DNA from: Lingula anatina
Lineage: Eukaryota > Animalia > Brachiopoda
Direction of reading: 5' to 3'
Length of the DNA stretch: 64,000 nt
Assembly (NCBI GenBank): GCA_051362555.1
Contig: CM120640.1
Coordinates: forward strand, 53,298,788-53,362,787
In this document: one piece after another, positions 10,191-58,157 of the stretch
Position numbering within the stretch: position 1 is the stretch's first letter
Layout of the letters: each line of letters starts with the position of its first letter
Made by a program: the position numbers and the translations under genes
Notes under the pieces: generated by a model
Seen by the model: only the letters and a program-made list of their open reading frames with translations
What the model was told of the DNA's origin: nothing
Databases searched by the model: none

Positions 10191-10876
10191 TTGGGGATGG
10201 GGAGACATGTTATTCACATAGAGTTTGCTTGGATAGACTGATACTAAGTTAAACTTTCACAGTTGGACTAAAAATGTGCCTTTAGTGCATGGAATAAATG
10301 TATTTAATATGCTCTCAAGAGTTGCATTCAATCTTCACCCAGCTGTGTTGACATTTCCCCATCTCAGAGTGACAATGATCAGTATTGATTGAGAAATCAG
10401 ATGCAATAATCTCACTTTGCTGAAGTGTCATACTGGAATGATATTAATAGTGGGGAATTTAAATTGGCTACAAGTAAGGCATGGCATGTGCAGACTGGTG
10501 GTATTTCCCTCCAAGTCTGTTCACTGTGCTTGATGTCTTTTGAGGAGTACAGTAATTTCCTCTACAGGGAATTCATAGTGATAGAGCAGAGTACTACCAG
10601 AGACAGCTAATCTAAGTTACACACTCAGACTTCAGTGGGCATCCCTTTGATAGTACAAAAGTATGATAAGGACAGTTTGTTTTCACTGATCTAATATTTA
10701 ATGCTGCTGTGAATTGGTTTTCTCCTTTCTGTATTTTGATTAGCCAAGCCCTTTGTTCTTACTTGTCTTTTCTCCAATCTTGTCATGTCAGTTATATGGT
10801 GTCATTAAATTTGAATTTAACTGGTCATGCTTAATGATTATCTTTTCTTTTAATTTCTAGGTTACCAGTCATTACA

Positions 10877-10894
10877 ATGAGGACACTAACATAA
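10877..10894 (+). promoter_or_regulatory. Short uORF (MRTLT*) 24 nt upstream of the main ATG
   Basis: atg agg aca cta aca taa lies between the acceptor at 10860 and ATG 10919, in the same frame. Confidence 0.5.
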
Positions 10895-10918
10895 AGCAGT
10901 CCCCAGGAACTTAGGGCG

Positions 10919-11708
10919 ATGCCGAAGGCTAAGAGGTTAGAGGCCTTGGTATCCATACTGCGATATCCAGGGGAAGTTCTAACATGGCTGGGGCTTATAC
11001 AGTTCTTCGTCTTTGCTCTGTTCCGTTTCCCAGCAGTAGGGATCACAAAGGAGATTCTGTATGATGGTGAGGAGGAGGGGTTCAAATGTAACCTTACTGG
11101 GTACTATGCTACACCAACGGCAGCCACACCTAAAGAGACCCTGGCATGTTATAAGATATACAAGGGGCCAGTGACAGTATCGATATTGTTGGCAGTACAA
11201 GCAATAGCCATTTTGGTTATGTGGGGAGGATACTTCATCTATGCCAGGTTTTGTAATGAGGTTCTAGAACACTCCAACTTGTCAGTTCTTTACGGAGGAT
11301 GCCATGATAGACGGGCCCGCCTCGTCACTCTGTATAGGATACAGACATTTTGCAGGGTTCTTACCGAGATATTATTTGTATCAATAAAAGTCAGTAACAT
11401 CAATGTGAATGTCCGGAGTTACCATGTCTGTTCAAGCACTTTTAACCAGTTTGTCCATGAAGAAGATGACCACACCAATCTTACAACACCAACTTTAATA
11501 TGTTCAGTGACACGATTCCATGACAAGACAGTATTTCTCCATGCCCTGTTAGTTATTGATATTGTAAGCTTAATTCTGGCCCTGATTGACTTAACGGTGG
11601 TGTGTATCCATGACCCAGACTATTTGTTCCCAGGACATCGAAAGATGCAAGTTGATGATGATAGTGCTAACCAGAGTCTGACTTCCATGAGATATACCTC
11701 TACACCAG
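10919..11708 (+). CDS. Coding exon 1 of connexin-like/NB-ARC/TPR gene: connexin-like four-TM domain (aa ~20-228) plus linker
   Basis: Acceptor tttctag|g at 10860/10861; in-frame stop (10892-10894) upstream of ATG 10919; donor CCAG|gtacag at 11708/11709 (phase 1). Translation follows connexin motifs in order: FFVFALFR-x-ILYDGEEEGFKCN-x-CY-x-LLAVQ (cf. LFIFR-x-VWGDEQSDFxCN-x-CY-x-WVLQ) and LY-x-FCRVLTEILF-x-C-x-CSVTRFHDKTVF-x-VSLILALIDL (cf. Y-x-FKxxFEVxF-x-C-x-CFVSRPTEKTVF-x-VSLxLNxxEL). Confidence 0.85.
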
Positions 11709-14700
11709 GTACAGTAAAATACAATAATTATTTGCAAATATTAAAAAGATATAAAAGCAGCATACATATGTACGTATGTACAGACATACATGCCTACATG
11801 CATACTAGTACTCCTTGCATACTTGTTCCCCCCTTTCCTTTTATATTCCTTTTTTTAGAAAGTTGGAAAATGTGAGTGATCATTACCTAAGGATATATTT
11901 CAGTAAAGAAACCAATTTTATTTAAGAATGCTATTTTTAATTGGCCTTTCTTTATTTTTCATGTAACATATTCTTCATCATTTCTAGCTGTCATGAATAA
12001 TAAACTCATCCACTTCTCAATTGAGTTAAGCAAAACAGTCAGTTGCATCAGTGTATAATTTATAGGTTTCAAGTTGTGAGTTGAATGTTAAATAAAGGTC
12101 TTTTTTAGTAGATATGATGGTTTTCTGAAGATAAGATTTAGAGAAGGTGATCGATCCTTTGCATTTCAGAGGATAAAAGATTTCAATCAAACATTAAAAT
12201 AAAACTTGGTCTTTTCTGAAATGAATCTGATGCTTTGAAGCATTCAGTTTTACTAAGAAAATGGTAATGTAGGGATTTTTTTTTTTTTTTTGCAATGCTT
12301 GTATCCTTCCTTCTCTGCCTTAACTTGGACATGATAAGTCTTTGATGTCTACATTAGCTTTATCCTCAAAGGTTAACTGATGCTCTTTATGGGAATTGTG
12401 TGTACAGCATATGTGCGGTTTGGTTGCAGAAAACAAGGGTAATACTACTGTGCTGGCTGGATGTGAGAGACATGGGCTGGCACAGAGAATGTGAACAAAA
12501 TGTTACATTTTGTGTTATGGTGTCATCTTTCTCTTTAATAACTTAAAATTGATATAACAGAAATGTTATGAAAACGCCATAAAGATGTATGGCTTCATAA
12601 TTCCTAGTATGGATATTTTGTTTCCCCATGTCTTACCTAACAACCAGAGAGGCTTCTTTGACCTTTTGTCTTTTAATGCAACATAGTCATTTGCAAGCAC
12701 CTAGGTAATCAAAACAACCACCAATGGTTTAAAGTTTCTTAGAAAAATAACAAGTAACCAGGAGCCTTGCAAGATGGTGAGGAAATTGTGTCTGATTTGT
12801 ATACATTAAAGCTAGAACAGTTTTTCAGCTATAAAATTTATGAAACTGATGTATGTTCGTATAGACAATAGCATTGCACAAGTAGAAAAAAATGCGCTAG
12901 CATTGGGTTATCTTGACGTCTATTTTTACATAGCATAATTACAATGTATGATAATGAGCCATCATGCAAATTAACTTTCACAGTGCAATATAATGGGGAA
13001 CAAAGAATTGTGCTTTTTTTGCTCAGGGAGTTGTGTATTTTCTCATCTCTTAGGATGCTGCATATCATACTCATTTCTGTAACAGAGCTTATAGCAGAGA
13101 GTGGCTCTCTCTTTCATTATGAGATTCATTAAGTCATGATTTGATGCATTTCAAACTAAATTTCCTGGTTTTCTCTTCCATGGTACAATAGAATGAAAAT
13201 AAATTTGACTCCTTACATACAGCCATATTGCCATATTATTTAGACCTTAAAATTTCTTATAATATAATATGTGAAGTGTGAAATAGCATCAGAATAGATT
13301 TATGCACAAGCTCATATAATCTAAATTCCATTAGTGGGCCTATAGGTTTAAAATAAGGCTGCAGCAATCCAAGGAGAACACCCTGCAAACCTGCTTACAG
13401 TTAACAGGGCTTGTGTTTGCTTTGTTCAGCATATACTGCAAAATAAGGTCTACTACCTGCATTTGGGTGCATAATACAAAGGTGTTTATCTTGTCTGGGT
13501 TTGATTTGAAAGAAGTGAGTGAGGAAAAGCTATAGAATAACACACCTGGAGAGAGACTGGGAATGGGCCCCTATGCTTTGAGAAAGATCTTTTGTAAAAT
13601 CTGTTTGTCGTAGTGGGGAGTCTCAAGCAGGTTTTTCTTGAAAGTTTAATCGGCCAAATTAGGGGCCACCAGAAATATTTGACCATGCCCTTGACAGAGG
13701 TCAGAAGGCAATTTACATAGAGTAATGAGGTGAAGTGACAAGAATGAACTCCCTTTTTACTGTAAAAACATTATGACAAAAGTAAATCATAACAAGAAGG
13801 TAAGGTTAGGTATAGTACAAAATGTACCAAGTAAATAAGGCTCTTTTCCTACTTTGTAAATGTACATGAAAAAAGGACTTCGTACAATTTGAAACTTCAG
13901 TTAAGAAGATGGTTATTATATATATGCAAGTAAAAATGTAAAAAAATATATATATATATATATTTTAGTACAGCATCTACAGTTAATAAACTGTTTTGTC
14001 CATAATACACTTTTGCTTCAAAGATGGATATTCAGTGACATTCAGTCTTGATGGCTTATTTTATCTACAACAGACTGATTTGAATTTATAAGACAAACAG
14101 TACATTTATCAGTAACTATTGAAACTCTTCAGAATATAGAAAACACAAAGCTAAATTTGTTTAAAATATGATAATTAAAAAAGCAAAACAAAAAAGTTAT
14201 TCACAAATAAATTCTTTCTCCTAAAAGCACATCACAAAGTACCCAACATTTGATATAGGCTTACTGTTTCTCAAGACCACAGCATAATCAGATCTGATTC
14301 AACCTAACGGAAGTCGGTGATTGCATTGTGGAGCAGAAAAGTCCATTAAAATGCTATTAAATGTCAATAAATGTATCAATACGGTAATGCAGCCTGACAT
14401 TAACAACACTGTCTTCAGGAAGAAACTTAACAATTGAACTTTGTAAGTCTGATGTTGGTAGCATTCCCTGCAACAATTTCCATTTGCAAACTTTAGTTAA
14501 ATAATTGTTATGCTGAATTATCATATCAGAACCATCTTTGTGTGTTTTCCAAACATTTGCATTATTATTTCTGTTAATTCAGTTTATAATTCACCCTCAA
14601 GCTATTAGGGACTCTTTACAAATGCCCTGTTATATCCAGATAATTGTGCACATGAACAACAGATCATATACATTTTTTTTTTTTTTTTGCAATCTCCATT

Positions 14701-16221: not shown

Positions 16222-17442
16222 ATTCTAACTGTAACATAAAGCAATATATTATGCTTTGCCCAGTTCTAACCCTGTTGGTGTATTGTATGTAGTATCTGTA
16301 CAATTATGCCTGTGCCTTATGTCCTGATACATGTTTTCTCCCAGGCACTCATCCATATAGTATTAGCTCTGTGTTTACTGTTATGAGATGGCAGGGGTTT
16401 ACCACATCAATTACACTGGAAGAAGACATGTCACAGCATAGGATGATGTATGACAGGTTGAATTAGGTTCATATTTACTGTACCAGGTTGGACACTGTTA
16501 TGTGTATACATGACTAAATTGATATAGAAAATAGTTTGCTTTCATTCTCATGGCTTATAACAAAGTACATGTCCAATATGTGTCTCACAAGCAACTTAGA
16601 ATATTTTAATAAGGTACCCTGTCCTACAAATAGGGCTTTTATCTGTCTCTTCTAGCTGATACTGTCTTGCACATTTTGTGTGTACATCGATTTATATACC
16701 TATGTGACGTGAGTCAGTGGGTGGTTACATATTTCATGCCAAAGGACAGGTCTACTTTCACCATACATGAGGTTTATGTCATAATTTACTCCATGTCTGT
16801 GGGTTTAACTTTTCCCTGGTTGATGAATTACCATATGTTGAAGTATCACAGTGATGTCCGTGCCTCATACCAACTAATGGTTGAGTACATACATGAGTCC
16901 ATCTGAGCCATAATTTTTTTTCTTAACATGGTTAGGCACACAATTTGACTTTGGAGATTTTTAAGTGACTGATTTGCATTTTGGAGTGGTCCTAAAATGG
17001 ATAGGCTACCAAGTGTGCTGCCTGGGGAAAGGTTTTAGTACTTGCACCACATGCCTTTTTTCCCACATAAGATTTTAAAAGTGGGATTATGTTATCAATA
17101 GCTTTAGACACATCTAAGCCCCTTTTCAAATCAGTGTACAGAATAACTGAGAAGGCTGTAAAAAACACTTATAAGTGGATGTGATTGCTCAGGCTCATCA
17201 TGTTTGTTATGCAACTGTTTTAGTGATTGAAAATGAAGAGATAAGGATGATTGATTTAGAATTGAAGCAGTCTGTGTATCTGTAAACAGAAATTTTGGCA
17301 AATTCAATTAATAAACAATGAATTTTCTTTTTAATAAACAGACCATTTGATTAAAGTTGTTTTTTAAATATAATTATAATTTACATTTTTTAAAATGATT
17401 TTAGTACATAGATTTAAGGGCATATTTTGTTCTTGTTTTCAG

Positions 17443-17553
17443 TAGCTCCCCCAGTGATCCATGTTCCCCAACCCGTGCCATATTTCTATCACAGCCATCA
17501 CATGGGCAGCCTGACCAAGGCCCTTGAGAAACACAGCTTTGTGGCTGTCACAG
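17443..17553 (+). CDS. Coding exon 2 of connexin-like/NB-ARC/TPR gene (pre-P-loop segment VAPPVIHVPQPVPYFYHSHHMGSLTKALEKHSFVAVT)
   Basis: Polypyrimidine tract and ttttcag| acceptor at 17442; ACAG|gtaaat donor at 17553; 111 nt, phase 1-1, open frame. It supplies the hydrophobic strand FVAVT just before the Walker A motif of the next exon. Not in the ORF track. Confidence 0.8.
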
Positions 17554-17995: not shown

Positions 17996-20364
17996 GTCCC
18001 CATGGATGTGGTAAGACCCAACTAGCCTTGAACTTTGCACAAAGTCAACAAAAAGAGTATGGCATAACACTGGCATGGTGGCTACCTGGAACATCTGCAT
18101 CTGCCTTGGAGCACAGTCTGTATATACTGCACGAACGCATGCATCTGAATATGCCTTTTGCAGCTGAGGAAAATGCCAATGTACGTGTCGAGGGCCTATT
18201 GACTGGAACCATTGCACAGTTGTCCAAGCGATTTGGGAGAATCTTGCTGATATTTGAAGATGTCAATGAGTTGGGTGCCATGATAGAGAATGCTTTTAGC
18301 AGAAGGGATAAATTTATTGTGATTCTGACATCCAATAACCCTGCTGTCATTCAAGATGAAGATCTGGTGGTAAGGATAGAGGGGTTCTCTGATAACGAAA
18401 CCATGGACTTCTTCAAAATGGAGGATTCATTTCAAAATGCTGCAGACAACGATATTGTAGATGTTGGACAGACTCTAGGGAATCTCCCATTTGGCCTGGC
18501 CGTGGCCCGCTCTTACATATCACACGCAGAATCTGATATCCAAGATTACGTACACAACATCAGTGACATGAGTAACACTGGCACCATGCAGACTATTCAA
18601 AAGAAATTCCTTGGTCAGCATCATAAGAAAACTCTGGTCCAGGCATTGTTATTGTCATTTGACCGCATGCGCCATGGTGGGTACAAAGAGGCCATGAAAG
18701 CTTTTGAAATTGTTGCTTATTTCTCCCCACAAGATATCCCTAGTTTCTTGCTCCACAATGGGCAAAACGACAAGATGGATGACTTCCTGACCAAGCTTAA
18801 AAAATATTCCCTGGTGGCTAGGGATGATATTGATGGGATTCAAATGCTGTCTGTTCACAAAGCAGTACAATTGGCCCTGATGATGGAAATACAAAAGCAG
18901 GACCCCAATCATGCTTTGAAAAGGGCAATCTTTGCCTTACTGGGGCACATGGAAAGAGACATGAGGTGTGCTCAACATTACAAAATCAGCACACTGTTGT
19001 TGCCACATTTAGAATCAGTATTAAAACACTGTTTAAGCATGGAGCTGGATTTTGAAGGCTCCATAGGGAGAATTTGTCTCCTGAATATGCTGGGGAATTT
19101 GTATGCCAAAAAGGGAATGGTCATAATGGCTGAAGCTGAGCTCAAGAGAGCCAAGCAGCTGGTATTTGATCTGCTCCGGACGTCAGAGGATCAGCTGTAT
19201 GCAGAGGCAATAAGCCGTATAATGGTGCGCAGGCGCATGAGTTTCCGTGAGGTCACAAGTGACTTAATGACAAGCACCAAGGCAGACTTGCTGATGAACA
19301 TGCTGTCTGAAACCAGTTACAACAGTATGGATGAAAATGATCTTCTGAAACTATTGTGTACCCAGGTATTCAAACATCCTGATATTAAAGCACTTCAGGC
19401 CAAGCTGGGTCCAGTGGTGGTTGAACTTCACACACAACTTACCCCTGAGATGTACCTTGATCTTGTAGAAGAACAGGTGGGGACTCCTCTTGGGAAGATG
19501 AGGAGAATCTACCTAGCAGAGATATTCATCTCCATACTGTATTCTTATGGTTCCCTGTATTTCTGTCAGAATCCGAGCAGTGTTAGAAATGATCAGAAGC
19601 AGCTGTACATCAGTGATTTGAGGTTAGCCAAGAGATTATGCCAACTTCTCGACTCTGCCTTTCATTACAAAAGCATATATTTAATAGTGGCAGATCGCAA
19701 TGCTTTACTGTGTCTTGATTTTGAATACAGTAAGCTTACCCAGAAAGAACTTATCAAGAACTTGGAGCATGCCAAGGCAAGGTATGGGGACTTGCTTCAT
19801 GATCATGATGACTACTACTATGCTGGTGTTCTCAAACTGACAAGTCTTCACAGTGACCCATATCACAGAGTGTTCTGTCACCGACAAATAGTACGCTGCT
19901 ATATCCTGTTCATCAATCTGGAGACCTATGCAGACATACCCCAACTTCTGCGTGAAGGGCAGAAGCATTGCGACAGGATGCTGCAGATAGTGGAGGAGGC
20001 TCAAGAGGCTGGGTACAAAATTCCGCAGACTAGTTTGTTTTACAATACAGCTGCTGAGTTTGTATTGCTTCACAATACTCCAGGTTACACTGAGATGAGT
20101 ATTGAATACTATAACCAGTCGTATGAGGCAGAAGTCGTAAAGGCCAAGGTCACAGGAGCTCTATTAGAAGCAGTGTTGGGACTGACCAAGATATACAAGC
20201 AAGAGGGAAAGCATGAGGATGCTTTTGCCTATGCCCAAGAAGGTTTGAGGTTTGCTAAGCGACAGCCACTTTTTGCTAAATATCAAGACGAAGCCTTACG
20301 GCTTGTGAGGCAAATAAAGATAGAACATCCCTCTGTAAGCCGTGGTGTCTGTGCTGTTAGATAA
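17996..20364 (+). CDS. Coding exon 3 (terminal): NB-ARC-type STAND NTPase followed by TPR-like alpha-helical region
   Basis: Acceptor ttccctag|gt at 17995; frame gives G-PHGCGKTQLA (Walker A), ILLIFEDV (Walker B), FIVILTSN (sensor-1 position), LGNLPFGLAVARSYI (GxP/GLPL motif), LKKYSLV...MLSVHKAVQ (MHD-type motif), then TPR-like helices (LLNMLGNLYAKKGMVIMAEAELKRA; VLGLTKIYKQEGKHEDAFAYAQEGL). Continuous ORF to TAA at 20364. Confidence 0.9.
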
Positions 20365-24570: not shown

Positions 24571-27500
24571 CTATGCTGATACCATTGGTGCAACTCCCAG
24601 CTCTTTGGCCAAATCTTCCTATAATACAATAAAAGAAATATGTCTCAAATCATAACAATCATGAACGATTTATAAATAATTAAATAATTTCCTCTACTTA
24701 ACTCAAAATATCTAAAACACTTGAATATGAAGACATACTGATAACTATGAATAATACATAAACTGGAAATAATACACTGTAAGTTTAAATATTAACCTGT
24801 GGTCCATCATCACTTCACAAAGGATGCATATATTATTATTAGCAGGTGACGCAAAGACCTTGTATTCTAAATATTGTGTATACAAACTAAAGCAATTGCT
24901 AATGGAATTACTTTAACAAAGGTTAAGAATTTAAAAAGAGAGGTAAAAGCATATTGTGATACAGATTGTTAAAAACAATCCAGCCAGCCTACCAGATAAG
25001 CAATTTGGTTTGGATGGTATCTTATCCCACCTTCCCTATCACATTGTGACATGTGTTTTCTCTCAGGGTCCCCAGCAACAAGGACTTCACTCTCACCTTC
25101 TGCCTGGAGAGCAATAATAAAAATATGTGAGAGACTGCAAAGAAATGTTGGCACCCAATAAAACCTTGTTAATTTTTTAAAATAAGATGGTTTCCACAGC
25201 AAATAAAGAATAACTTCATAGTTACACATAAAAAATTGCATTTAAACATAAGCTTACTGTTGTTTCTCATCAATGAAACAATGTCTAACAATGTCCTGGC
25301 TTGGAATTTTCATTACTCGGCAAGGGGGGGGGATACTAAATTGGAAAACTGAGAAGGCTTGGATTCAACTATTGATTGTTTATATCCCTTACAAACATCT
25401 TCCTAGTTAGACATGCAAATATACTTCTTTGCAGGTATAATTTTTTCTTACTGGTTCTAGATTTCTACAAGTATCCATCAATTCCTGCATCCTGTCAGTA
25501 AAGCCACTTGCAAAGTTCTCTGGGTTTATTGCTATAAAACACTGCCCCTAAAAAAGGAAAGAAACTACACAAAGTAAGCAAACAAATAAAATGACACCGC
25601 CTTTCTTCTTTCCAAAAACACCCTTTAACACAAAATATAAAGAAGCTCAAAACTTCTGATTATGATGTCTTTCATTGCTACAGTGAATCTTACAATCCAA
25701 CCATTTTCTATTAATGCCTCCTTGAATGCAGTCCCCTTTTCTGTATGGACTGGCGTATCTATAAAATGCTAATCTAAACCCACCACATAATGAACTTACC
25801 AGATTGGCAACTCTGTCAGTTTTCATCCATTTGCGAATATTTGGACCCCACTCTGCACCACTGAGAATTCCACAGAATATTTCCACCAACATGGCCAGCC
25901 CATACCCCTTATAGCCACCTAAAATATAGGAGTATCTTAATTTACCCATTTTTGTCGTGTGTGGGGGGTACAAGTAACAATGCAACAAGCAAATGAAAGC
26001 TATGTGGTTCAAGTAAACGCATAACAATAGCTCATACTGATACTTCTTACCACACTCTTCTGATCCTCCCAATGGCATCAGTCCACCTCCTTCCAAAACC
26101 TCATCTGGATTGGTGGTTTCCTACCAAAATGTGTAATATACCCCATGTTTTCATTTGAATCTACACTTGCATTCCTAAATGCATCCTGACAATTTAATTT
26201 CTCAGAATTCCAATTGATCTATTATACAAATGCACATCATCCAAAGTTTAATACTATAATGTTAAAATACAGAACTTGATTATACTTTATATCATCTTGT
26301 TCAGAAAATGTATAAAATGAGGAAAAAATGTTGCAAAACAAAAAAATCAAAAACAAAAATCTGTCTATAATTTGTATATTTGCTTTTACCTTTCCTGCCT
26401 GGTCTACACCCCAACCTTTTGGCATGTTTGTTCCTTTTCTTTGACAGATTTCGACCTGTAGTCAACAAACACAGTATAAGAATTTTTTCTATACATTGTG
26501 ATTTGAATATTCTTATACAATTATAGTAATAAATAAATGTTAAATTATAAGATGATTATGAAAAATCATCTTGCAAAATATCAGAGTATTTCAAACATTA
26601 TTTTCGCATCTTACAAACTATTACTTTAGATCACAAAAATTGACATTTCACTAACCATTACTTTAGATCACAAAATTTAATTGATTGTTATTCCTGGAAG
26701 GATATTCACCCCAAAGTAAAAACTTTTTTTCTTTTATATTGTGTTGTTCACACTTGCATGCTACAGTTTCACTTTCATATATGAATCAGTCACATTTATT
26801 GCTGTTTCCACATGATTTTAGTTTTACTTATGTTTTTACACTTCAATTAAATATTGGGCCAACCAACTGATATTCCACATGTATAACCACTTATAAAAAT
26901 ATATATTGGGTTTGTTGTACAGAATTTATCTGTATATTATAACAATTAGTCATCAGATGTGTGGAACATTGGTAATGGCATGCAGTAGTTACTGGGTAGG
27001 CAGGCCCGAATTTACCTTTCCATAGGCCACAGTGGTGGTAGCCATGTCTAATACAAAACTATCCCCTTCTTTTCCTGGGGCAGCCAAAGTCAGTGCATTT
27101 GTGCCCAAATGGGCCTATTTAAAATATAATCATTTGATTCATAAAGAGATTATTCAAATCATGCCCATTTCTAATTTTGTTTATAAGCAATCCAGCATTC
27201 TCATGAAAAAATCCTTCTATTCTTGACATTATACATGTATATCAGTGTACATGTTTTTCTGATGGTAGGGTGCCAGAAACTGAAATAAAAAGGTGGGGGT
27301 GGGGGGCAAAGCAACAGAGCATGCATGTAACTCTACCACATTTTTCTGAAACACAAAAAAAAAAAAAAATCAAACAAATGAATCAAAACACATAAACTAA
27401 ACAAATCAGATCACAGCACACCAACCAAAGTCCTCTATAAAGGCTCCTCTGTCACAGCAATCAATATTTATCTCACCTTCCCAACTGCAGCAGTGGAAGT

Positions 27501-30500
27501 TGCCATATCAAGCACAAAACTGTCTCCATTCTTGCCTGGAGCAGCAAGAGTTATGGGGTTAGTTCCTAAAGTTGGCTATTGTAAATTAAAGGAGAAAGTA
27601 AATAGAAGGTCATTATCAAATTTATGATTCTAACATATTTATTACATACTCTTTAAAACTGTATAAACAAAAGAATTTCCATTTAATTTTTGGAAAATAA
27701 AATCACAACCAGACATACCATGTATGTTGTAAAGGAAATATGGTATTATGGTAATGACTCGATCTTTTCCATGGGCAAAAATTATCAAATTTTCAGATAC
27801 ATCATTTTAAAATCATAAAAATTCTATTTTGTAACATTTATGGTGCTTTTGCTTTTAATGCATAGAATAGAACTATAAGGTAGTCTGCTTTTCAATTTTG
27901 TTGTTACCACTCAATAGAATTGCTCTTATTTTAAGAAATTAAGACTTAAAAAATACAGCATCTGTTAATTTCACAATTTTCCCCATTGAAAAGATCGAGT
28001 CATTACCTTATTCCAAGGAAATGAGAATTTCTTCATCTCACTATCATCAAATCATGAAAATAATGCGTCACAATAAATTCGTTAATATATTAAAATAGGA
28101 AATGATTATGACAATCATGTTTAATACTCACTTTCTATATAATTACTGCCAATTTATGACACCTTGTTCATCATCTACATAAATATTCTGCTGTAAAAGC
28201 CACTGACTACAATTTACATTGGAAAACGTGTCTTCTTTTGTTTTATAAAATTATGTTGAAATCTTGACAGATCTGTTAGTTACCATAATGATGACATGTT
28301 ATATTGTTAAGTTAAACAGCTGAATAACATAGATGAAGGTTAAACAGTTAAACAAAAATTACTGCAATGATTTTAAAACAAGGCACCGAAGCTGTCAAAT
28401 GTACAGACAAAAAGAAAATAATTAAATAAAAAATAGGATAATTTGTCAACTTTGTTGCAATATTATTTTAATACATATTTTTTTAAAAATTAGTGTGGAT
28501 TTTTCTGTTAAGCATTACAATGCTTATTCAAGTTTAATAGTAACTATGGGTGTATCTTTGCCAGTTTTTCAGATATGAATATAGTAGTATCTGTTTCAGT
28601 TGTAGAGATATAGGGGCTAGTAAATGTGTGAAGTGCATTTCATGTAGAAAAGTAGGTCAAAGGTAAAATTCCAGGTGAGATTAATATGCCCAGTATATGA
28701 TTTCCTATTCAAGTTGAATAGTAACTACGGGTCTATCTCTGTTATTTTTGGAGCTATACAGGCTGGAAAATTCAAAAACTGCATTTCATGGTGAAAAGTA
28801 GGTCAAAGGTCAAATACAAGGCCACATGCCTATATATGGGTTGCTGTATTCAAGTTTAATAGTAACTATGGGTGTATCTTTGCCAGTTTTTCAGATATAT
28901 GGCTGGAAAATTAGCAACGATCAGTTCAGGGTGAAAAATAGGTCAAAGGTCAAATTCAAGGTCGCATTAAGATTGCCAATGTGTTTTTAAAGGAGACCAC
29001 AAGTGTCATTTCTCACCATAATATTGCAGCAAATCAGCACAAACAAATATTTTTCCACAGAAAATTAAAATTTTTACAACATTTTGGCCACTTTGACCTT
29101 GAAATATAGGTCAAATGTCAACTCCAAGCTCATATTTGAAATCTTCATATATAACTTTCTGACAGACTTCTATAGTAACTTTTCCAATAATTCCAATGGT
29201 TTGGGAGATATTTAGCATTTAATTTTCAAAATATGCTTTAAAAGTAAAAAAAAAATAACAGCATAACCTTTTAAAAAATGGTCTGATTTTCAAACTCGAC
29301 CTGTATTTTATGAATATTCAGTTCTGTAGCTCTGGTTTTACACTTAGTGTTATCTCTGATGGCGACAGACCCAGGTGACGGCTGTATGTACAAACATAAT
29401 GTGTCTGTACATAAAAATACCACATACCTTTTTGGCTCTAGTTGGTACTTGTAATGGTGAAGTGTTAGTGAAAGACATGCCCTAAAAAAGAATAAAAAAG
29501 CTCACATCAATATGCAGACAAGATGTTTTGAAAAAAATAAAATGATGAATATAATGACTTTAAATAGTTGCACAATAAAGTTTATTTGGGTAAATATAGA
29601 AAACAGAAACACTGAAGATTTTCACTCGCTATCTTTTTAATAAACAATTGAAGTTTCATTTTTCAATAGCTATAGAAAAATTAACTGAGATTTACCACCA
29701 ATATTTTGTCTGCTGACAGTCAGACTTTATCAGGAAAATGGGGGCTTTAATAGGTCATTTTGTCCATACAAAATGTTCACATTTGTTCTGAGAAACAATT
29801 TCAATTCAGAAACAAAAAAGTGAATTTGGCTGTGCCTGTCTCCTACTCTGTAAGCTTGTTCCACTAATATTTACTCACAAGGGAATCTTCAATTTTTCTT
29901 TGACTATGCATGAAAAAAAGTACTAAGCCAAATAAAAGCTACATGTAGTACTTTAGAAAACTCAGAAAACACTGTCCCATCCTTATGATGACAGACAAAT
30001 GTACATGTAGATATGGTTCATACAGTATATAGCCAAAGAGCAAATAATATGCATAATGAGGATGCCATAAGTACTTTTTTCTTCATGCCCATTGTCAACT
30101 TCAATGTGGAATTTTGTTTAATCTAAACACATTTCTTTATTTGGATATTTTAAAGCTTCTCAAATATAAATGTTTCATCAAAAAGTGTCAACAAAATGTG
30201 CAACTTTTAGGTTGATCTGTTTTTGCAACAAACAATGTCTCTAGATTTTACAATGCATCTTACTAATTGTCTATTTTGACCTTAATAAAAAAGGTCAATG
30301 GTCAAGTCTACAGTCACATTGGAAACACACTGCACTGATGTTGAATCTTGGTCAGTGCACACAATGACTGGCAAAAAGTATATATTCTAATATAAAAGGT
30401 GTTGGGTAAACTGTTATCTTAATTTCTTTTGGTCTAAGTAAATGTAGATGTGGCAAGATTTTTTTTAGCAAATTAAAATCCACATTGCTTTCAGCTCTGT

Positions 30501-32027
30501 AAGCTTGTGGTACTAGGACAAAATATGCTACTGGTATTACCATCATTCCCTCTTCCAATGCTTGCAAACTGTAAAACCCAGCAATTCCATAGTGGTTAGA
30601 ACCTACAAGAACAATGAGATCATAGCTTGGCTGATGAAATACAGATTGAGGAAGCAAACGGAAAATTTAAAGACATATAAAAAATTATTTTTCAAATAAA
30701 ATAGTGATAATTTGTTGATTGTTTTTTCAAAATCAATTCAGAATTGGATATATTGTGCATATCTTTTCCAAATGAGGACATTCAGTCTTGATTAAAGTTA
30801 AATGTTGGCTGGGATGAAGCCGAAGAGGTGGGTTTATATGGATTATCAATGTGTTTACCTTTAAAAGAAATTACTGATAGAACCACAGTTGGCTGTTAAA
30901 AGCAGTCAAAATTGCTAGGTACCACGAATAGGTTTAATGACTCCATAGAACAGAGGGCCAAAGAGAAAAAGAACCTACCTCTGGCAACTACCCATCCAAC
31001 TCCAGTTTCCTTAGCTTTCTGTATTGCTATCTTCATACAGTAGTTTCCAACAACTGGGCCCAATACATTCTGCCCATCCACCAGAGCTGTGGCCGCCGAT
31101 TCTTTTACTGTTACCGGTTCCATATCATGAACTGTGATGCCAGACTTTATGTCCTTTACATACATATCTGAAATATTATTAAGGACTGAAAGGTTTTTTC
31201 TGATAACAATAAATTTCATTAAAATAACATATAATAATAGCAAATAAACAAAGTAATCTTAATTATTTTTTTTTTTTTTTAAATTAAAAATACAGTTGTT
31301 TCATGTGGTTTTAAGATTCAACAACCGAGTGGGTACACGCCCCCCGGGTACAGTACTGGTACGTACTAGAAGTACCACCTCTAAACACCCGTCTTTCTAT
31401 TCTAAGTTAGTCTTTCTGTATAATAACATACAGTGCAATATTGCATATACACTTCATTTAACCACTTATAAATGAAACAGGGATATTCATGTCCCTACGT
31501 AGTCGGTTAATTCCATGGCTATAATGTCCTCGGTAGTCGGCTTTAATTAGGGCATCTGCCAGCTGACTCGCGTGCTCCTTTTTTGTACCAACTGTTGCCA
31601 TGCAACGTTCTACAAAAGGCTTGATCTCCGTGAATTGGATCAACTTCCATCCCTCCTCTGATGCACTAGAAGAAAACCTTGTTTTGGGGTTATATGTTCT
31701 TAAACGATGTAAAAAATTCATACAAAATAAAAAATTTCTGCCCCTTCCAACCATGTTGGAATTCCCTTTTCAAGGACCAATCAGAATATGTTACTAAAAA
31801 AATTATGAACTTTTTTCATAAGTTTTATTTTTGTCACCAATAAACATAGGTCATGGACATTGACACTGTGAAAGAACTTAGACTATAGTTCTTTTGATTT
31901 CGATATTAAAGAAAACCTCTAAACGAGAAAAATTGACTGAAATACTAACTCGCCTCGATCTAAAATGACCTAGACAAGTGCGTGATGCAGCATACACTCC
32001 GTGAAATAGCCTCTTGATCGAAAGCAT
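24571..32027 (-). CDS. Ldh_2 family (type-2 malate/L-lactate dehydrogenase-like, YjmC/AllD-like) oxidoreductase, multi-exon, probably mitochondrial
   Basis: Exons (minus strand): 32027-31954, 31665-31499, 31167-30979, 30602-30541, 29481-29428, [27575-27477 or 27114-27016], 26455-26390, 26120-26051, 25918-25800, 25547-25452, 25103-24993, 24618-24571 (TAG). All phases are compatible. Family motifs ADYRGHYSHGINRL, VDGQNVLG, GSNHYGIAG, GTNP, DMATS, PLGG..GGYKGYGLAMLVEIFCGIL, VAGDPE. Confidence 0.93.
27016..27114 (-). CDS. Ldh_2 gene alternative exon B (AHLGTNALTLAAPGKEGDSFVLDMATTTVAYGK)
   Basis: 99 nt, tag| acceptor, AAG|gtaaat donor, phase 0-0, 25/33 aa identical to exon A, no stops. Confidence 0.8.
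27477..27575 (-). CDS. Ldh_2 gene alternative exon A (PTLGTNPITLAAPGKNGDSFVLDMATSTAAVGK)
   Basis: 99 nt, tag| acceptor, AAG|gtgaga donor, phase 0-0, canonical GTNP/DMATS motifs. Confidence 0.9.
27750..28007. mobile_element. MITE-like inverted-repeat element in an Ldh_2 intron
   Basis: ggtaatgactcgatctttt...aaaagatcgagtcattacc termini with degenerate inner arms. Confidence 0.7.
28525..29120. repeat. Degenerate tandem repeat (~140-180 bp units with caagtttaatagtaactatggg...taggtcaaaggtcaa)
   Basis: Three recognisable units starting ~28530, ~28710 and ~28851, plus a partial fourth. Confidence 0.75.
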
Positions 32028-35070: not shown

Positions 35071-35982
35071 TGACAACACGATGTTGGGTAAGTAGCATTT
35101 AGTAGGATTTCACGTATTTAGACTGTCTTGAGTTCATATCGGTCGATCCCGCTGATCAGCTGAAGCCTCAGCTTGTATATATCCTTTTCCCTTTGGTGTC
35201 CTTGATCGTGATATGAAGTTTACTTTATTTTATTTGGTTTACCTATATTTACGCTACTATTCCCCGTCGTTCATTCCCTCCAGCATGGCCGCGGGACTAG
35301 TGTTACGGAGCAAATATGACGTCACTGTAATCGGTTAATATTGTACAAGAACCTGGTAGGTTCTCCATCCTTATGTGGAGACTGTCCTATATGCTATTGA
35401 CTGCTTTCCATCCATTGAGAAGAGAAATATGTCCTTGATTGATGAAAAAACATACATATTGATCCAAAAACTGTTCACTCAGGAACTTATGCCTGGACTT
35501 TATTTTTTTTAAGTACATAAAGCTTATGCAGGATCAATTATTCCAAAGGTGTCATGATGTGAAAAAATATATAAATAACTAATAGTATTTAAATTATATA
35601 GAATTTTATGTGTTCACAAATCCATGCACTCGTTATTCCATAAAAACATCTCAGTGTGCTGCTTCTCCATTAATTACCCAAATGGCCTAATACTTTGCTG
35701 TAATACCATTTTGACTGGCAGACTTTCAGAGTAATGGCATTTTGGAGTTATGGATCTTAGAAATTATAGTAATTCATAGTAATAGGACTGGTCCACCCTC
35801 ACCCCCAATTTGAAGTACTGGGTCACAGCAATACTAATGGAATGTGTGTGGATGTTTTCAAGTAAAAAATTTGAAACTACTATAAATATTTTTAAATAAT
35901 TGAAATTCCATGTTGTGTCAGTAACGTACTTACATACAACCTATTTTAATCTATTTTCAGACACTAAGAGGTTCCTGACAAA

Positions 35983-38900
35983 ATGTCAACAAAGGACCAC
36001 CTTAATTTTAAGTCACCGAACCATGCGGAAGACCTACTGAAAAAACTCCAGGAGTTGTGGTGCAATGGAAGGTTCTGTGATGTACAGCTGGCTGTCCAGG
36101 AGAAGCAGTTTAGTGCACACAGGAATGTGTTGTCTGCCTGCAGTCCATATTTCCAGGCCATGTTTGCTGGGGGGCTGGCTGAGGAAGGGATGGCCAAAGT
36201 AGAGCTGCATGAAGTGGATTTGGAGATTTTCTCTATTTTGTTAGATTTTATGTATACTGGTAAGTTTTTTGATGGTGCATTTTCATGTACAACTGTTCTA
36301 AATTGTACAGATTCACAGTCACTTGTTAAAGGAATATTGTTAATAAATTAAACTTATTAGCTAGATATCTAATAGTGCTCTTTATATGTATCATTCCAGG
36401 TGTCCATCATCAACTAGATTAGTTCAATAAAGTTGAAGATATACATATTTATCTATGACGGACACCAGATTTCCCTTGCCACTGTGTCAATAACCGAGTT
36501 AGATTTTCAGCCAAAATTTGTAGAGTCTTCAAAACAAACAGGATGCCCCAACTGCAATGTCCTGTGGTGGGTTGTGACTGGCAGTCACAGGACCCATGTT
36601 CACAAACTTTAAAAGCTCCCCAGGGGAGGAGACAGAGGACTTTAAAAAAGAGGAATGAGGACTGGCATATAAGTGACGTTTTATACATGCCCGTATAAAA
36701 CTTCCCCTGGGGAAGGATATAGCTAGATATCTAATAGTGCTCTTTATATGTATCATTCCAGGTGTCCATCATCAACTAGATTAGTTCAATAAAGTTGAAG
36801 ATATACATATTATAGTATATTACTATTTATTAATTAGTGAAATATATATAAGATGGTCTTGCTGATTATTGCAGTATTATTAGTCATAATGGTTTTAAGG
36901 GGTAATGTTATTTATGCAGGATATCGACAGAAGTTTTCATCCTTTAAAAGAAGGTGTGAAAGTTTGATGTATAAAAATTAAGAAGATGGAGACAATTTAG
37001 TGGAGGAGATGGATGTTGAGATCATCCCCTCTTTGTGCAATCTCTGTTGCCATATGAATACTTGGAAGTGATACAAATAGAACCATTATTGTAGTTGCTA
37101 TATCTGGTACCATGTTTTAAGTTACATTGTATCATTTTTTAAATTTCTTCACTAAAAAACTTTTATTGATTTTCATAATTTTTCAGGTGAGGTAGATGTG
37201 AGGAATGATAACTGTCAAGATTTGCTGGCAGCAGCAGATATGTTTGGCTTGCCTGAGGTCATGACTGCATGCTGTGAATTTATGAAACAGCAAATTCATC
37301 CATCAAACTGTTTAGGTTTGTTTGCCTTACTCAACATACTAAGAATTTGGAAAAATCCAGTTACGAATATTTATTTAATAGCAACTGCAGATTGGCAAAA
37401 CAAGATTTATTAATTGCAAATTTTATACACCTGTGGCAGATTGTATGATATTTTGGAATACTTGAATTGCAGGTATTTATGACTTTGCTGATGCACATGC
37501 TTGCCAGGATTTGAAGAAATACACTGAAAAATATATTCACAAACATTTTCTGGATGTAGTGAAAGAAGAAGAATTTTTCTTGCTTCCAAAAGAAACAGTA
37601 ATCAAAATCTTCCAGAGTGAGGAACTCCGCATAGAAAATGAGTTTCAGGTCTTCTCTGCTGCAATGGACTGGATCAATCATGATATCAAGGCAAGGAGAC
37701 CAAGTGTGTTTGATGTGCTAAACCCAGTGCGTTTGTCCATTATTTCACCAGCACAACTAGAGAAACACATCATCATGTGTGAAGATCTGAGTCTAAAAGT
37801 TGCTCTGAGAAAAATCATCCAAGACATAAAAACTGATAGAGATATAACCTCTTTTGGTTTAAAACCCCATAAGTTGAATTATTACCAAAAACATCATGTG
37901 CAGCCTCGGAGGTGTGCTAGAAAGATGATATATGTGATTGGTGGCTTCAGTCGCCTTCCGGGGGGAAGATGGAGTGACAGTCAAACCCTTAACACTGTAG
38001 AATGTTTTGATTCATTCAGACAACAGTGGAAAACAGTACCTTCCATAAAATTTTGCAGAAGCGGCCATGGGGTCACTGTCTTGGATGGCAATATTTATGT
38101 GATAGGTGGAGAAAGTGACTCCTTGATTTTTGACACAGCTGAACACCTTGATCCAGTGAGCAATCATTGGTCCATGCTGCCCAGTATGACGGTACCAAGG
38201 TGTGGGCTGGGGGTGTGTACAGTGGATGACTTTATATATGCCCTTGGTGGTTGGGTTGGCTCTGAAATAGGAGACACCATAGAGTGCTACAATCCCACAC
38301 TCAATGTGTGGAGCAAAGTTGGAAAACTGGTGACTCTTAGATTTGCCATGGGAGTTGTGGAGCATGAAGGTAAGCATATATATGTGTCTTTAACATTTAA
38401 CATGATGATAGTAAGGGTTTTTTGTGTGAATATGAATTCCCCTTTGAGCTTGCTCTATTTTTTTAACATTGTGATTACTCGTATGTTTTTGATTGTACCT
38501 GTGTACAAGTTTTTAATTGACATTTTTAATTTTTTTGGTATACATCAAACATCTTAAATTTTCATTATTGCCTTATTTTGTACAACACAACACTATAAAA
38601 TATATTTGGTTGGATGTTGTCTAACATTTGAATTTAACTTATCATAATAATGAGAATAACTTTATTTCAGCACAACTACATATACAATGACTATGACCCA
38701 ATATATATATAATTTTGTTAATAAAGTTAACAGAAGGATATATTGCTAGACTGGATAAGCATAAAACATTTTGCCTGTTAAAAGCTACCTTAGAGCTTGC
38801 ATGCCAAGCAGTCTATAATTTTATAAATTATGTGTATTAAAGTACATGCACAGACATGACTGTATACATTGAGGAGAAGGTTCAGGATGAATAAGGAGAG

Positions 38901-47271: not shown

Positions 47272-48106
47272 GGTCTTCCTTTCATGTAGGTACGCCATGT
47301 TTAGGCCGTGGCCTTACTAGCACTCAGCTTTTCTCAATCTGATCAATGTTCAAATGAAAAATGAGGAATTTTGTAACAAAGGTTAGGTAAAATGCATCCA
47401 TATTTGTTTTAATTATTTAAGCTAAAAGCTTACTTTAGAAGCAGAATTCTGGATTTGTGGCATTACAAATATAACATTATAAAATTGTGAAATGAATATA
47501 AATGTTTATTCAAGTCAACAAATTGTTACAAAAAGGTGTTTTGCTTACTTTTCAAGAAATATAAAGGAGATTCTGTACTATATACATATAATTATATTTA
47601 CCACTACACCTGTACTGGACACTTTTCATCGCAGATATGTTGAACCATGCGTCTATAGAATTCACACTCCACATTTTAACCAAATTCCCTTTTGATATTT
47701 TCTTAGTATAGTAAGGGAGGTTAGGTAAAACTGTGTTCTGTCATTTAAAAACCATTGAAAGTGTCTAAAGATACTGTAAAGCTACATTCACAACAGCAGA
47801 CCTACAAGTCCACGGATCAAACTATGGCCAACCCACTTGAATGCTTATTGGGTAATCCCTGCAGGGAATCTATGCAGTGGCTCTTAGGGGATAAGATTGC
47901 AGTCTTTAACTAGTGTGTGAGCTTTAAGTGGCTCACCATATTTGACTAGTTAGTCAGCTGTTCTGAGTGTGGCCTTAAACAACACTTGCTGTTCCCAGAG
48001 CAAGATGGATCTTGTAGTTTCTAGAGAATGTTTTCAGAACTGTAATACTTCCTTAATGGCCTCCTTTCTTTTGACCTGAATCTTTTCTTCAGACCAACAG
48101 GTTACA

Positions 48107-48396
48107 TCCCTATACTTCCCTGCACCGATACTCCCCCGCACCAATACTCCCCCACATCGATACTTTCCCTCAGTATCGATGCAGGGAAGCAATGATGTGG
48201 GGGAGTAACGGTGCGCCTACATCAGCAATTTTACTGGGGATGTATCGATGCGGGGATCTATCGATGTGGGGGATTATTGATGTGCATAATACACAGAAAT
48301 TTACTAAGGGGGGATAATTGGTGCAGGGGAGTATCGGTGCAGGGGAGTAACGGTGCGGGGGAGTATAGGTGCGGGGGAGTATCGACATGACCCCGA
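48107..48396. mobile_element. Fold-back element built of inverted 15-bp tandem units (gatactcccccgcacc)
   Basis: Left arm (atactcccccgcacc)n, right arm (ggtgcgggggagta)n ending gtatcgacatgacccc. Confidence 0.7.
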
Positions 48397-48399
48397 CCA

Positions 48400-49975
48400 A
48401 CACCACGTGGCAGTGAGAGTCAAATGCCAGAGGTGTCTGTGGCAGTTCTTTCATGTCATCTATACTGCTGATCAACATCTTAAAATGATCTGATTAGGCT
48501 AAATTGCTTACCTGGAATGAGTTCTACGTTCTGCTAGAGCAGAAGGGGCCACACAGCACATCTTGGGGACCAATTCCAGTTGCAGGATCTGAGGAAGCTG
48601 GTGATGCAAGCCACTACACTACCCCCTCTTCTGAATAAACATTCGGGGCATACTGAGACTGTTGTTGCTTCAGCTCACTAAACATGTTAAACAGCTTGCC
48701 ATGGTGTGCCCTGCTTTGACCACATGGCATGGCCAGAGAGGGCCCTTGGCAAACATCCAGCACTGTGGAACTCTGCAAGGACCCTGAAAGTGGTGTAGGT
48801 GGATCAGCTGATCCCTCCTCCCCAGAATGCACTGGATGAGTATCAGGAAGGAGAACTGGGTGTGGTTCTCACCTGGCAACACTGCAGTACAGCACAAGGA
48901 CCTGTGCTGCACTTCTCCAGCCTTTGACTCCCTCAGGCCTGGGGGACCATGCGGTCAATCCCCACCTCCCAGAGTGGTGACATCTGGAGAGGACAGGAGG
49001 GCCTCTTTGTGCAGATATGACGCGTCCCTCACCTGCTTCTTAAGGTGAAGCCCCATAGCTCGGCATAGGCTCATTTTTTTGAGAATGGGCAGTTCCTTGG
49101 GTCCTGGGCCAGATGTCATGTAGAACACTGCTGTTTGCCCCATGAGCCTGAATGGATAGCAGACTCATTGTCCCTGCCATTCACCTCTTCAGTGAGGAAG
49201 AGAAACCCCTTGCCCATACGCAGGGAGGCTTGATCTAGGTAGAAATGGGAGTCAAGCCCTTCAGGGAGGCTGGACAAATGACTGCTCTTCTCTTTGAAGG
49301 GAGTAAATGGGTCCCATCAATCAACTCTGAGGCTGTTCCAGGAGGACGGCCATCCTGAGCAGGAACCTCCAATGGAGGAGGGCATGTAGCCCATTGCCCC
49401 TGGCCTTGACCCGAAAAGGACCCTCTGAACTTCCAAATAAAATGCTACTTAACTCCCACATGGCCAGCTCCAGCTAGGGACTGATCTCCTTATTTCGCTG
49501 TGGGAAACCCAATGGCCCATTGTACCTCAGGAGCTGAACCAGGGTGGAATCTGGAATTTCAGCTCCTTCTGTTAACAGCAACCCTGCCAGTCAAACTGTC
49601 CAGAAAGATGTGAGGCAGGTGATTTACAAAGACCCGATTCTTCATTTTATGGCCACCACAGTTAGGAGCAGTGCAGCTGCCGCCGTCATGGTGACACAAC
49701 ACGGAGACGATGGTACCGCCACCTGCCGCTGTGCTGGCTTACCGCATATTGTTAGAGGAAGTGGCCACATCAGATGGAATCGCTTCCTTAGTGACTGCAG
49801 ATTTAAGTCTCGAGTATCTACCATGCTCTGTCCTTCTGGCGGGCCGATATCTTAACTCCACCTACTATGTCCACTCCACCAGAGGACACGAGGAGTAGGG
49901 TGGCGGCGCCCCTTAGCATATGTCCCACGCCTCACAAGATGTCGCGCACCTCTCGTGAGACTTGTCTTGAGAGAC
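48400..49975. mobile_element. GC-rich decayed coding-like insertion (possible retroelement remnant)
   Basis: Abrupt rise in GC, many short fragmented ORFs, no intact long frame and no recognisable RT/integrase/recombinase motif. Class not determined. Confidence 0.3.
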
Positions 49976-50481
49976 AAGATAATACCTTAACTTTATAGGT
50001 AATATTTAAATAAGACATTTAAGGTAGATCTTGGTATAAGTAGGACAGGTGAAGGGTAGATTAGGCACCTATGACTCGGGACTTAAAAACTAAGGCAGTG
50101 GGAATAAAGCTGTTTGGATCTTCTCCATCTGTGAACATAAAATCGAACCTTACACCAGCAAGCAGAGTGGATGGTACACAGCATCTTGGACCACAATATC
50201 CCTTTCGCTTATCAAAATTTGGCAAAAAAAAAATGCATATTTTTCATTCTGGAATCAATTTGATCATGGAAGCTTTCCGTCAAATCCCCTAAAACCTTGA
50301 CACAAAAAGTTCTTGAATATTCATTCCCCAAGCTACATTTATGCGTAGTAAACTTAAAATCAGTGCACTTTTTTAGCTAGGCTACGTTAGACCTCCGCTC
50401 TGCTGCCTCTGCAATTTGATAGTTGTATGTTTTTTTACAGTTTTTATGTAATTTTTGTTTGCCTTTCTTTCTGTAAATGTA

Positions 50482-57620: not shown

Positions 57621-57706
57621 TACCCTGCCTACACTGCAGTTGAGAGAACTATAACTTGTTTTAGTCACTGCAGTCTAGGCCAGAGAGGTATCTAGCATTG
57701 AGTAGG

Positions 57707-58157
57707 ATGCATTCAATGCAGTACTGCGTTTCTGTTGTTATAGTGGCGTGCGTACATTTGGCTTGCCGGGAGCCAGCTCGGGCTATGACAGTTAGGGGAA
57801 CAACAGAAGAGGACTTTCGTTTTCCTCATCAAAATAGTTATTCAGATACTCACCAGAACGCTGCAATGACTTCATCATCCGCTAGTGCAAATCAGGGCCA
57901 AGCACAGCCTAAAAATTACATTTTAACCGACCAACAATTACACGATTTAAGACTAGAGATGATAAAGAAACAAATTTTAGACAAACTTCAAATGACTCAC
58001 AGGCCAAATATCACAACGAACAGGAATAAACTCCTGCCCGCCCCCTTAGCTCAGAGACTGTTTAAGGACCCGGACTTCCAAGCCACCGAAGCAGTAGAGA
58101 GCGAGGGAGATGATTTCTACGGAAAAACAACAGAAATGGTGGTTTTTGCAGATCAAG
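57707..58157 (+). CDS. First coding exon of a TGF-beta superfamily ligand precursor (activin/inhibin-beta/myostatin-like prodomain); gene continues beyond the window
   Basis: Signal-peptide-like N-terminus (YCVSVVIVACVHLAC..PARA), prodomain helix LRLEMIKKQILDKLQMTHRPNIT, acidic DDFYGKTTEMVVFAD, strong donor CAAG|gtaagt at 58157. No mature cystine-knot exon recognised in the window, so the subfamily is unresolved. Confidence 0.85.

Follow-up and report, generated by a model that had tools for sequence, protein, structure and literature searches.

A connexin-like domain at the N-terminus of a predicted NB-ARC protein in the brachiopod Lingula anatina

The genome of Lingula anatina, a brachiopod and lophotrochozoan protostome, carries a connexin-like domain in the exon at 10919-11708 of the 64,000-nucleotide stretch of DNA analysed here (the window), and profile and motif comparisons confirm, at the level of sequence, that this domain is real. 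It is predicted to be the first part of a spliced gene encoding, in order, the connexin-like domain, an NB-ARC NTPase and TPR-like helices. Connexins have long been viewed as a chordate invention: a passage of PMC8769644 recounts that earlier work found none in non-chordates, a chordate-only view repeated in part of PMC6543705, and in a section of PMC6391747 Lingula is entered as having one family and lacking one. The connexin-like result is an independent rediscovery, from raw sequence, of a class of invertebrate connexin-like proteins that is already known from a 2026 preprint, including its proposed immune origin (Butler et al., bioRxiv 10.64898/2026.06.13.731801). The Lingula connexin/NB-ARC gene itself was probably described there too, and what may be new is its NB-ARC-TPR partner, where corals use NACHT-LRR. 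The gene comprises the following parts:

10861..10918, + strand: probably the 5' untranslated stretch at the head of the first coding exon, its start placed from the position of the acceptor
10919..11708, + strand: coding exon 1, encoding the connexin-like domain and a polar linker (from PF00029 and hydropathy), with a phase-1 GT donor at its end
17443..17553, + strand: coding exon 2, encoding the start of the NB-ARC and ending on base one of the codon for the Walker A glycine (GT-AG ends, open frame)
17996..20364, + strand: coding exon 3, encoding the NB-ARC NTPase followed, as far as the stop codon, by a helical TPR-like region (from Pfam, NCBIfam, motifs and the Atlas)

The predicted joining of 10919-11708, 17443-17553 and 17996-20364 at GT-AG ends gives a single open frame of 1089 aa. 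A tandem acceptor at 17436-17446 (+) of the window generates two isoforms differing by one valine, with 17443 yielding 1089 aa and 17446 yielding 1088 aa; these match exactly isoforms X1 (1089 aa) and X2 (1088 aa) in the public records of LOC106159679 (Lingula anatina). The 17446 form is identical, letter for letter, to database protein P0002, with residues 1-242 of which the translation of exon 1 agrees at 100%. The connexin/NB-ARC fusion is present in at least five RefSeq protein records; the locus has two UniRef isoform entries, and the protein has the UniProt accession A0A1S3HZR6. An earlier, sequence-only reading of the window had treated 10976..11602 as a unit, starting at 10976; in fact the connexin-like domain begins at the ATG at 10919, and its exon opens the coding part of a spliced gene that extends to 20364. 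Both introns are in phase 1, and therefore the connexin domain constitutes one exon module. An alternative donor at 11714 was rejected, as the intron would begin with a non-GT dinucleotide. The third member of the protein's cluster, P0004 (55 aa), had neither visible likeness to the Lingula protein nor a Pfam match, and was set aside.

The likely 5' untranslated part is preceded by a pyrimidine-rich AG acceptor at 10859-10860. An N-terminal fusion through the first coding exon was rejected because of an in-frame stop at 10892-10894, upstream of the ATG at 10919; hence nothing is fused ahead of the connexin domain by this route. A short upstream ORF of five codons (10877-10894, +) shares the reading frame of the connexin ATG and stops 24 bases ahead of it; it could dampen translation of a pore-forming protein. 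Over the first 22 kb of the window (1-22000), which takes in the gene and the DNA upstream of it, GC skew stays positive, and no long ORF precedes 10895; this pattern would fit long 5' untranslated introns, with transcription on the + strand.

Several types of evidence identify the domain. Firstly, Connexin (PF00029; E 4.7e-8) was the sole Pfam family matched at E<=10 by the + strand ORF 10895-11875, with a score of 33.5 bits exceeding the curated cut-off of 31.3, and an alignment spanning profile positions 5-224 of 225 (220/225; window 10946-11605); within the 1088-aa full-length protein, the same profile scored 28.9 bits, slightly below this cut-off. Secondly, connexins accounted for 16 of the 19 PDB sequence matches at E<=10 and occupied ranks 1-16, each match being individually weak (best E 0.052). 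Thirdly, connexin clusters were top-ranked in the ESM Atlas (0.91-0.92, with 198-206 of 256 features in common), above pannexin-like/innexin clusters (0.75-0.79), which is support rather than proof, as 4 to 10 of 100 shuffled proteins reach 0.9. Fourthly, five of the six motifs quoted in the sequence-only reading were found as written by regular expression (ExxFxCN at residue 52, CY at 77, Y..RxxxE at 139, CxVTRxxDKTVF at 195 and SLxLxxxDL at 217), although F-x-F-R was absent, the actual residues being F-x-x-F-R at position 32. The TM2 glutamine it described is visible in the translation as Q94. Its statement that the innexin YYQWV motif is missing also held, since a regular expression search did not find YYQW. 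Innexin or pannexin identity was rejected on this absence, on the lack of a match to PF00876 at E<=10 for the exon ORF 10895-11875, and on the lower Atlas similarity (0.75-0.79 versus 0.92 for connexins); claudin identity was rejected as this ORF likewise had no claudin match in Pfam at E<=10. The claim of a connexin-family domain is upheld by a match over nearly the whole profile, and in Pfam at E<=10 no innexin, claudin or other family scored better for this ORF.

The domain occupies approximately residues 1-230, running from an N-terminal helix through TM1, EL1, TM2, a short loop, TM3, EL2 and TM4, after which comes the polar linker. Hydropathy reveals three strong peaks, corresponding to TM1, TM2 and TM4, with TM3 being weaker and amphipathic. 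The N-terminal helix is charged (K3, K5, R6 and E8), the stretch between residues 83 and 156 is free of lysine, and the loops contain N-glycosylation sequons at N58 and N187. There are two cysteines in each extracellular loop (C57 and C77 in EL1, C171 and C195 in EL2), rather than the three per loop of a canonical connexin. Taking the pairing from the Cx26 and Cx43 structures, those absent are presumably the middle cysteine of each loop, and therefore both partners of the middle disulfide. The secondary-structure order in a single-sequence AlphaFold2 model fits the connexin fold, albeit in a poor model (pLDDT 48), with which Foldseek and VIA recovered generic helical bundles (best Z 7.4) and no connexin, a result uninformative on the fold. 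The domain shares the features of the invertebrate CxL domains of Butler et al. 2026, namely a non-chordate host, an N-terminal location, two cysteines per loop and linkage to an immune-type domain. On these sequence features we class it with the invertebrate connexin-like domains, it being neither a canonical six-cysteine connexin nor a NACHT-LRR NLR.

The NTPase is of the NB-ARC (AP-ATPase) STAND type. The NB-ARC profile (PF00931) matched residues 286-522 with an E value of 7.2e-8 and 32.4 bits, above the cut-off of 23.5, whereas the NACHT match in the same 1088-aa protein was far weaker (E 0.015). Searching with consensus patterns located five motifs in the expected order: Walker A (300-307), Walker B (383-388), sensor-1 (408-413), GxP (461-464) and an MHD-like motif (585-591). 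Sensor-1 (window 18319-18336, +) ends T-S-N, without an arginine, and Walker B reads E-D. In many STAND proteins the sensor-1 arginine contacts the gamma-phosphate of ATP, and ATP handling may be atypical in a protein with these motif variants. No LRR family was among the 19 Pfam matches at E<=10 in the full-length protein, in which Pfam also detected no other effector domain (death fold or TIR); with NB-ARC in place of NACHT and no LRR, membership of the anthozoan-type CxL-NLR class was rejected.

The C-terminal tail is named TPR-like. The NCBIfam model FxSxx_TPR matched with an E value of 1.4e-29, yet below its cut-off, and the Pfam TPR matches in the full-length protein were weak (E 0.36-1). 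Nine of the ten ESM Atlas clusters listed for residues 265-1088 (0.97-0.98) had NB-ARC and/or TPR families; these came from bacteria and ascomycetes, a similarity which, according to the tool's own warning, is no sign of gene transfer. A poor single-sequence model of the tail (pLDDT 47) was helical, with TPR proteins (LGN and OGT) as its top Foldseek rows at E ~0.02. A PDB sequence search with the NTPase exon returned just two Cdc6 matches, at chance level.

The sequence-only reading had proposed a protostome host, and suggested checking it with an IPP phylogeny. IPP is a BTB-BACK-Kelch gene at 35968-38557 (+), approximately 25 kb from the connexin gene. In a tree of 27 of the 120 listed rows, comprising the window IPP, 11 named non-vertebrate sequences, 14 vertebrate sequences and one labelled contaminated, the window IPP grouped with all eight of the eight protostome rows with support of 99/99, albeit on a branch marked as long. 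Excluded from this tree were 10 unnamed rows and the rest of the vertebrates, and the list contained no tunicate row with a name. This agrees with the brachiopod source of the DNA, and so the host is not a chordate. The IPP record is 673 aa in length, compared with about 580-620 aa in most relatives. Elsewhere in the window are the exons of an Ldh_2 gene (PF02615; malate/L-lactate dehydrogenase) at 25647-31258 (-), and the first exon of a TGF-beta family gene at 57665-58222 (+), which encodes a hydrophobic leader and matches the propeptide weakly (E 0.0016). A GC-rich island at 48000-50000 (51% versus about 35%), possibly a mobile-element remnant, contains three short 16-base tandem arrays at 48112-48384.

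At E<=0.001, a phmmer search of 1.84 billion representatives with the connexin-like domain found only itself and no chordate connexin; nor did it detect a second connexin-like protein in Lingula, in a set where paralogues more than 50% identical would be hidden in the protein's own cluster. Word-based searches identified no homologue of the domain among 946 candidates (0/946); for the full-length sequence, the 7993 candidates contained no match but the protein itself.

According to Butler et al. (bioRxiv 10.64898/2026.06.13.731801), 170 non-chordate UniProt proteins have a connexin superfamily domain, of which 158 are anthozoan, 10 are from Owenia and 2 are from Lingula anatina. The domains are patchy across bilaterians, and are proposed to have originated, with an immune role, in the cnidarian-bilaterian ancestor. 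The channels reported there are gated by depolarisation, and sometimes by CO2. In HeLa cells, the Lingula representative, laCxL27, was a voltage-gated channel that opened on depolarisation, was insensitive to CO2, and formed plaques and gap junctions passing dye between cells, whereas the three cnidarian domains tested gave hemichannels only (bioRxiv 10.64898/2026.06.13.731801). NACHT-bearing cnidarian constructs still formed channels, which depolarisation opened without ligand, and release of ATP and glutamate persisted in cnidarian constructs with several domains. The same preprint describes abundant innexins in Lingula; its main text contains no occurrence of NB-ARC, and leaves the Lingula architecture and accession unstated. 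Nevertheless, laCxL27 is very probably the connexin-like domain of LOC106159679, because the species is the same, the two Lingula records parallel the two UniRef entries, residues 1-238/240 have a computed mass of 27.0-27.2 kDa, and the lysine pattern agrees: with no lysine between residues 83 and 156, the CO2-sensing lysine is not expected, which fits a CO2-insensitive channel. The openly accessible literature covered contained no other description of a connexin/NB-ARC fusion.

We lean, at slightly better than an even chance, towards the Lingula protein being a membrane-bound innate-immune STAND receptor, in which an NB-ARC ring would control a hexameric or heptameric large connexin pore. The TPR-like repeats would hold the NTPase off until they bound a foreign or damage ligand; nucleotide exchange would then rearrange the NB-ARC ring on the cytoplasmic face of the pore, favouring its opening; and ATP, ions and other small signals would leave the cell, or enter a coupled neighbour. 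This reading builds on the identity of the domain, the open frame across three exons, the NB-ARC motifs and the protostome host, and borrows from the preprint the channel activity of the isolated 27-kDa domain, on the strong presumption that laCxL27 is this domain. It is the architecture that suggests an immune role: the N-terminus is the effector position of STAND proteins, and the connexin domain's location at the true N-terminus supports an immune receptor. Conversely, the opening of the NACHT-bearing constructs by depolarisation without ligand (bioRxiv 10.64898/2026.06.13.731801) speaks against this reading, and a passage of PMC6321704 reports that NLRs with TPR repeats seem uninvolved in PAMP recognition, which counts against a strict immune role.

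A more speculative and rather unlikely version has the full-length protein as a sensor-gated gap junction, with ligand opening the connexin pore to a neighbouring cell, and the connexin exon as a mobile effector module; exon shuffling would have joined this exon to NACHT-LRR in corals and, as a separate event, to NB-ARC-TPR in brachiopods. The sequence-only reading had suggested that gap-junction connexins may derive from an immune-effector domain; the exon layout would be explained just as well by a free ancestral connexin that different STAND proteins took up on separate occasions.

The foremost alternative to an immune receptor, itself rather unlikely, is that the fusion protein works as a genuine channel or gap junction outside immunity, for instance in tissue coupling or development, in which the NB-ARC-TPR would be a scaffold or slow regulator and no pathogen sensor. 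The plaques and dye transfer of laCxL27, in which it differs from the three cnidarian domains, favour this (bioRxiv 10.64898/2026.06.13.731801), as do the missing sensor-1 arginine and the single copy detectable in Lingula, rather than an expanded family; yet the abundant innexins are available for coupling, and docking in vivo might be impeded by the two sequons in the loops. We consider it improbable that the connexin part of the full-length protein is instead mainly a membrane anchor and oligomerisation collar for the NTPase, with signalling through partner proteins rather than a pore. The name laCxL27 would, if it denotes the same gene, mean that only an isolated 27-kDa domain of a 124-kDa protein was tested, and strong divergence leaves the domain without any other match at E<=0.001 among the 1.84 billion representatives; against this, residues typical of the pore family and both retained cysteine pairs are present, the cnidarian multi-domain constructs still released ATP and glutamate (bioRxiv 10.64898/2026.06.13.731801), and the protein has no other detected effector domain.

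There is little likelihood that the connexin exon is a stand-alone gene running to the stop at 11875, with the NB-ARC join being an annotation artefact or minor isoform. The frame does remain open for 167 bases beyond the donor, poly(A)-type hexamers occur at 11740, 11999, 12091 and 12193, and an untranslated exon followed by a single coding exon resembles the layout of stand-alone connexins. However, such hexamers are common in DNA that is 66% A+T, the three exons join in phase 1 at GT-AG ends without a stop, and the records separate two forms differing by one residue at the tandem acceptor, for which pipelines would normally need RNA support. Least credible is chordate contamination or recent horizontal transfer, to which the patchiness of the domains among bilaterians (bioRxiv 10.64898/2026.06.13.731801), the long IPP branch and the list without a named tunicate IPP lend some weight, but recent contamination is very unlikely because no other protein, chordate connexins included, was found at E<=0.001, and both are countered by the setting of the domain, which is spliced into a gene resembling those of the host, on a contig of 1,055,544 bases also carrying the Lingula anatina IPP that clusters with 8/8 protostome rows at 99/99, and by the exon's GC (0.436) and GC3 (0.449) lying inside the range of four other exons measured. 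An ancient transfer is conceivable.

The presence in a brachiopod of a connexin-like domain attached to an NLR-type protein argues for a pre-chordate origin and an early link to innate immunity. With NB-ARC-TPR, the NTPase partners fall into two classes, a point relevant to the question of whether connexins were first fused or first free. The remaining value of this work is practical, as it provides an exact gene model for studying how a STAND protein might gate a large pore, perhaps one that links cells.

Among known systems, the anthozoan connexin-NLRs (CxL-NACHT-LRR; pmCxL30, edCxL50 and pmCxL62) similarly have a single-exon N-terminal connexin-like domain with a STAND NTPase behind it and two cysteines per loop, and in one anthozoan clade, too, the domain ends at an exon boundary. 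They differ in combining NACHT with LRRs, where Lingula has NB-ARC and TPR-like helices; in their abundance, with 4-100 copies per coral genome compared with one detected in Lingula; and in that the three cnidarian domains tested were hemichannels only. Vertebrate Cx23, of the epsilon clade, shares the PF00029 profile and four loop cysteines; part of PMC3920103 describes zebrafish orthologues that form gap junctions, and mouse Cx23 as forming hemichannels only. Unlike in Cx23 and the other vertebrate connexins, to which there was no significant pairwise match (best PDB E 0.052), the Lingula protein has the loop sequons N58 and N187 and an 825-residue NTPase-repeat tail. A passage of PMC8769644 notes that loop glycans block docking in pannexins, yet seven innexins with such sites still form junctions. 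Placozoan NLRs terminate in WD40 or TPR according to a section of PMC6321704. The NB-ARC-TPR STAND proteins of bacteria, fungi and placozoans include no sequence relative of the Lingula protein among the 7993 candidates of the word-based search; nevertheless they have the same ordered NB-ARC motifs, helical repeat tail and N-terminal effector position, which in Lingula is occupied by a connexin-like domain, rather than by a death-fold, TIR or enzyme domain.
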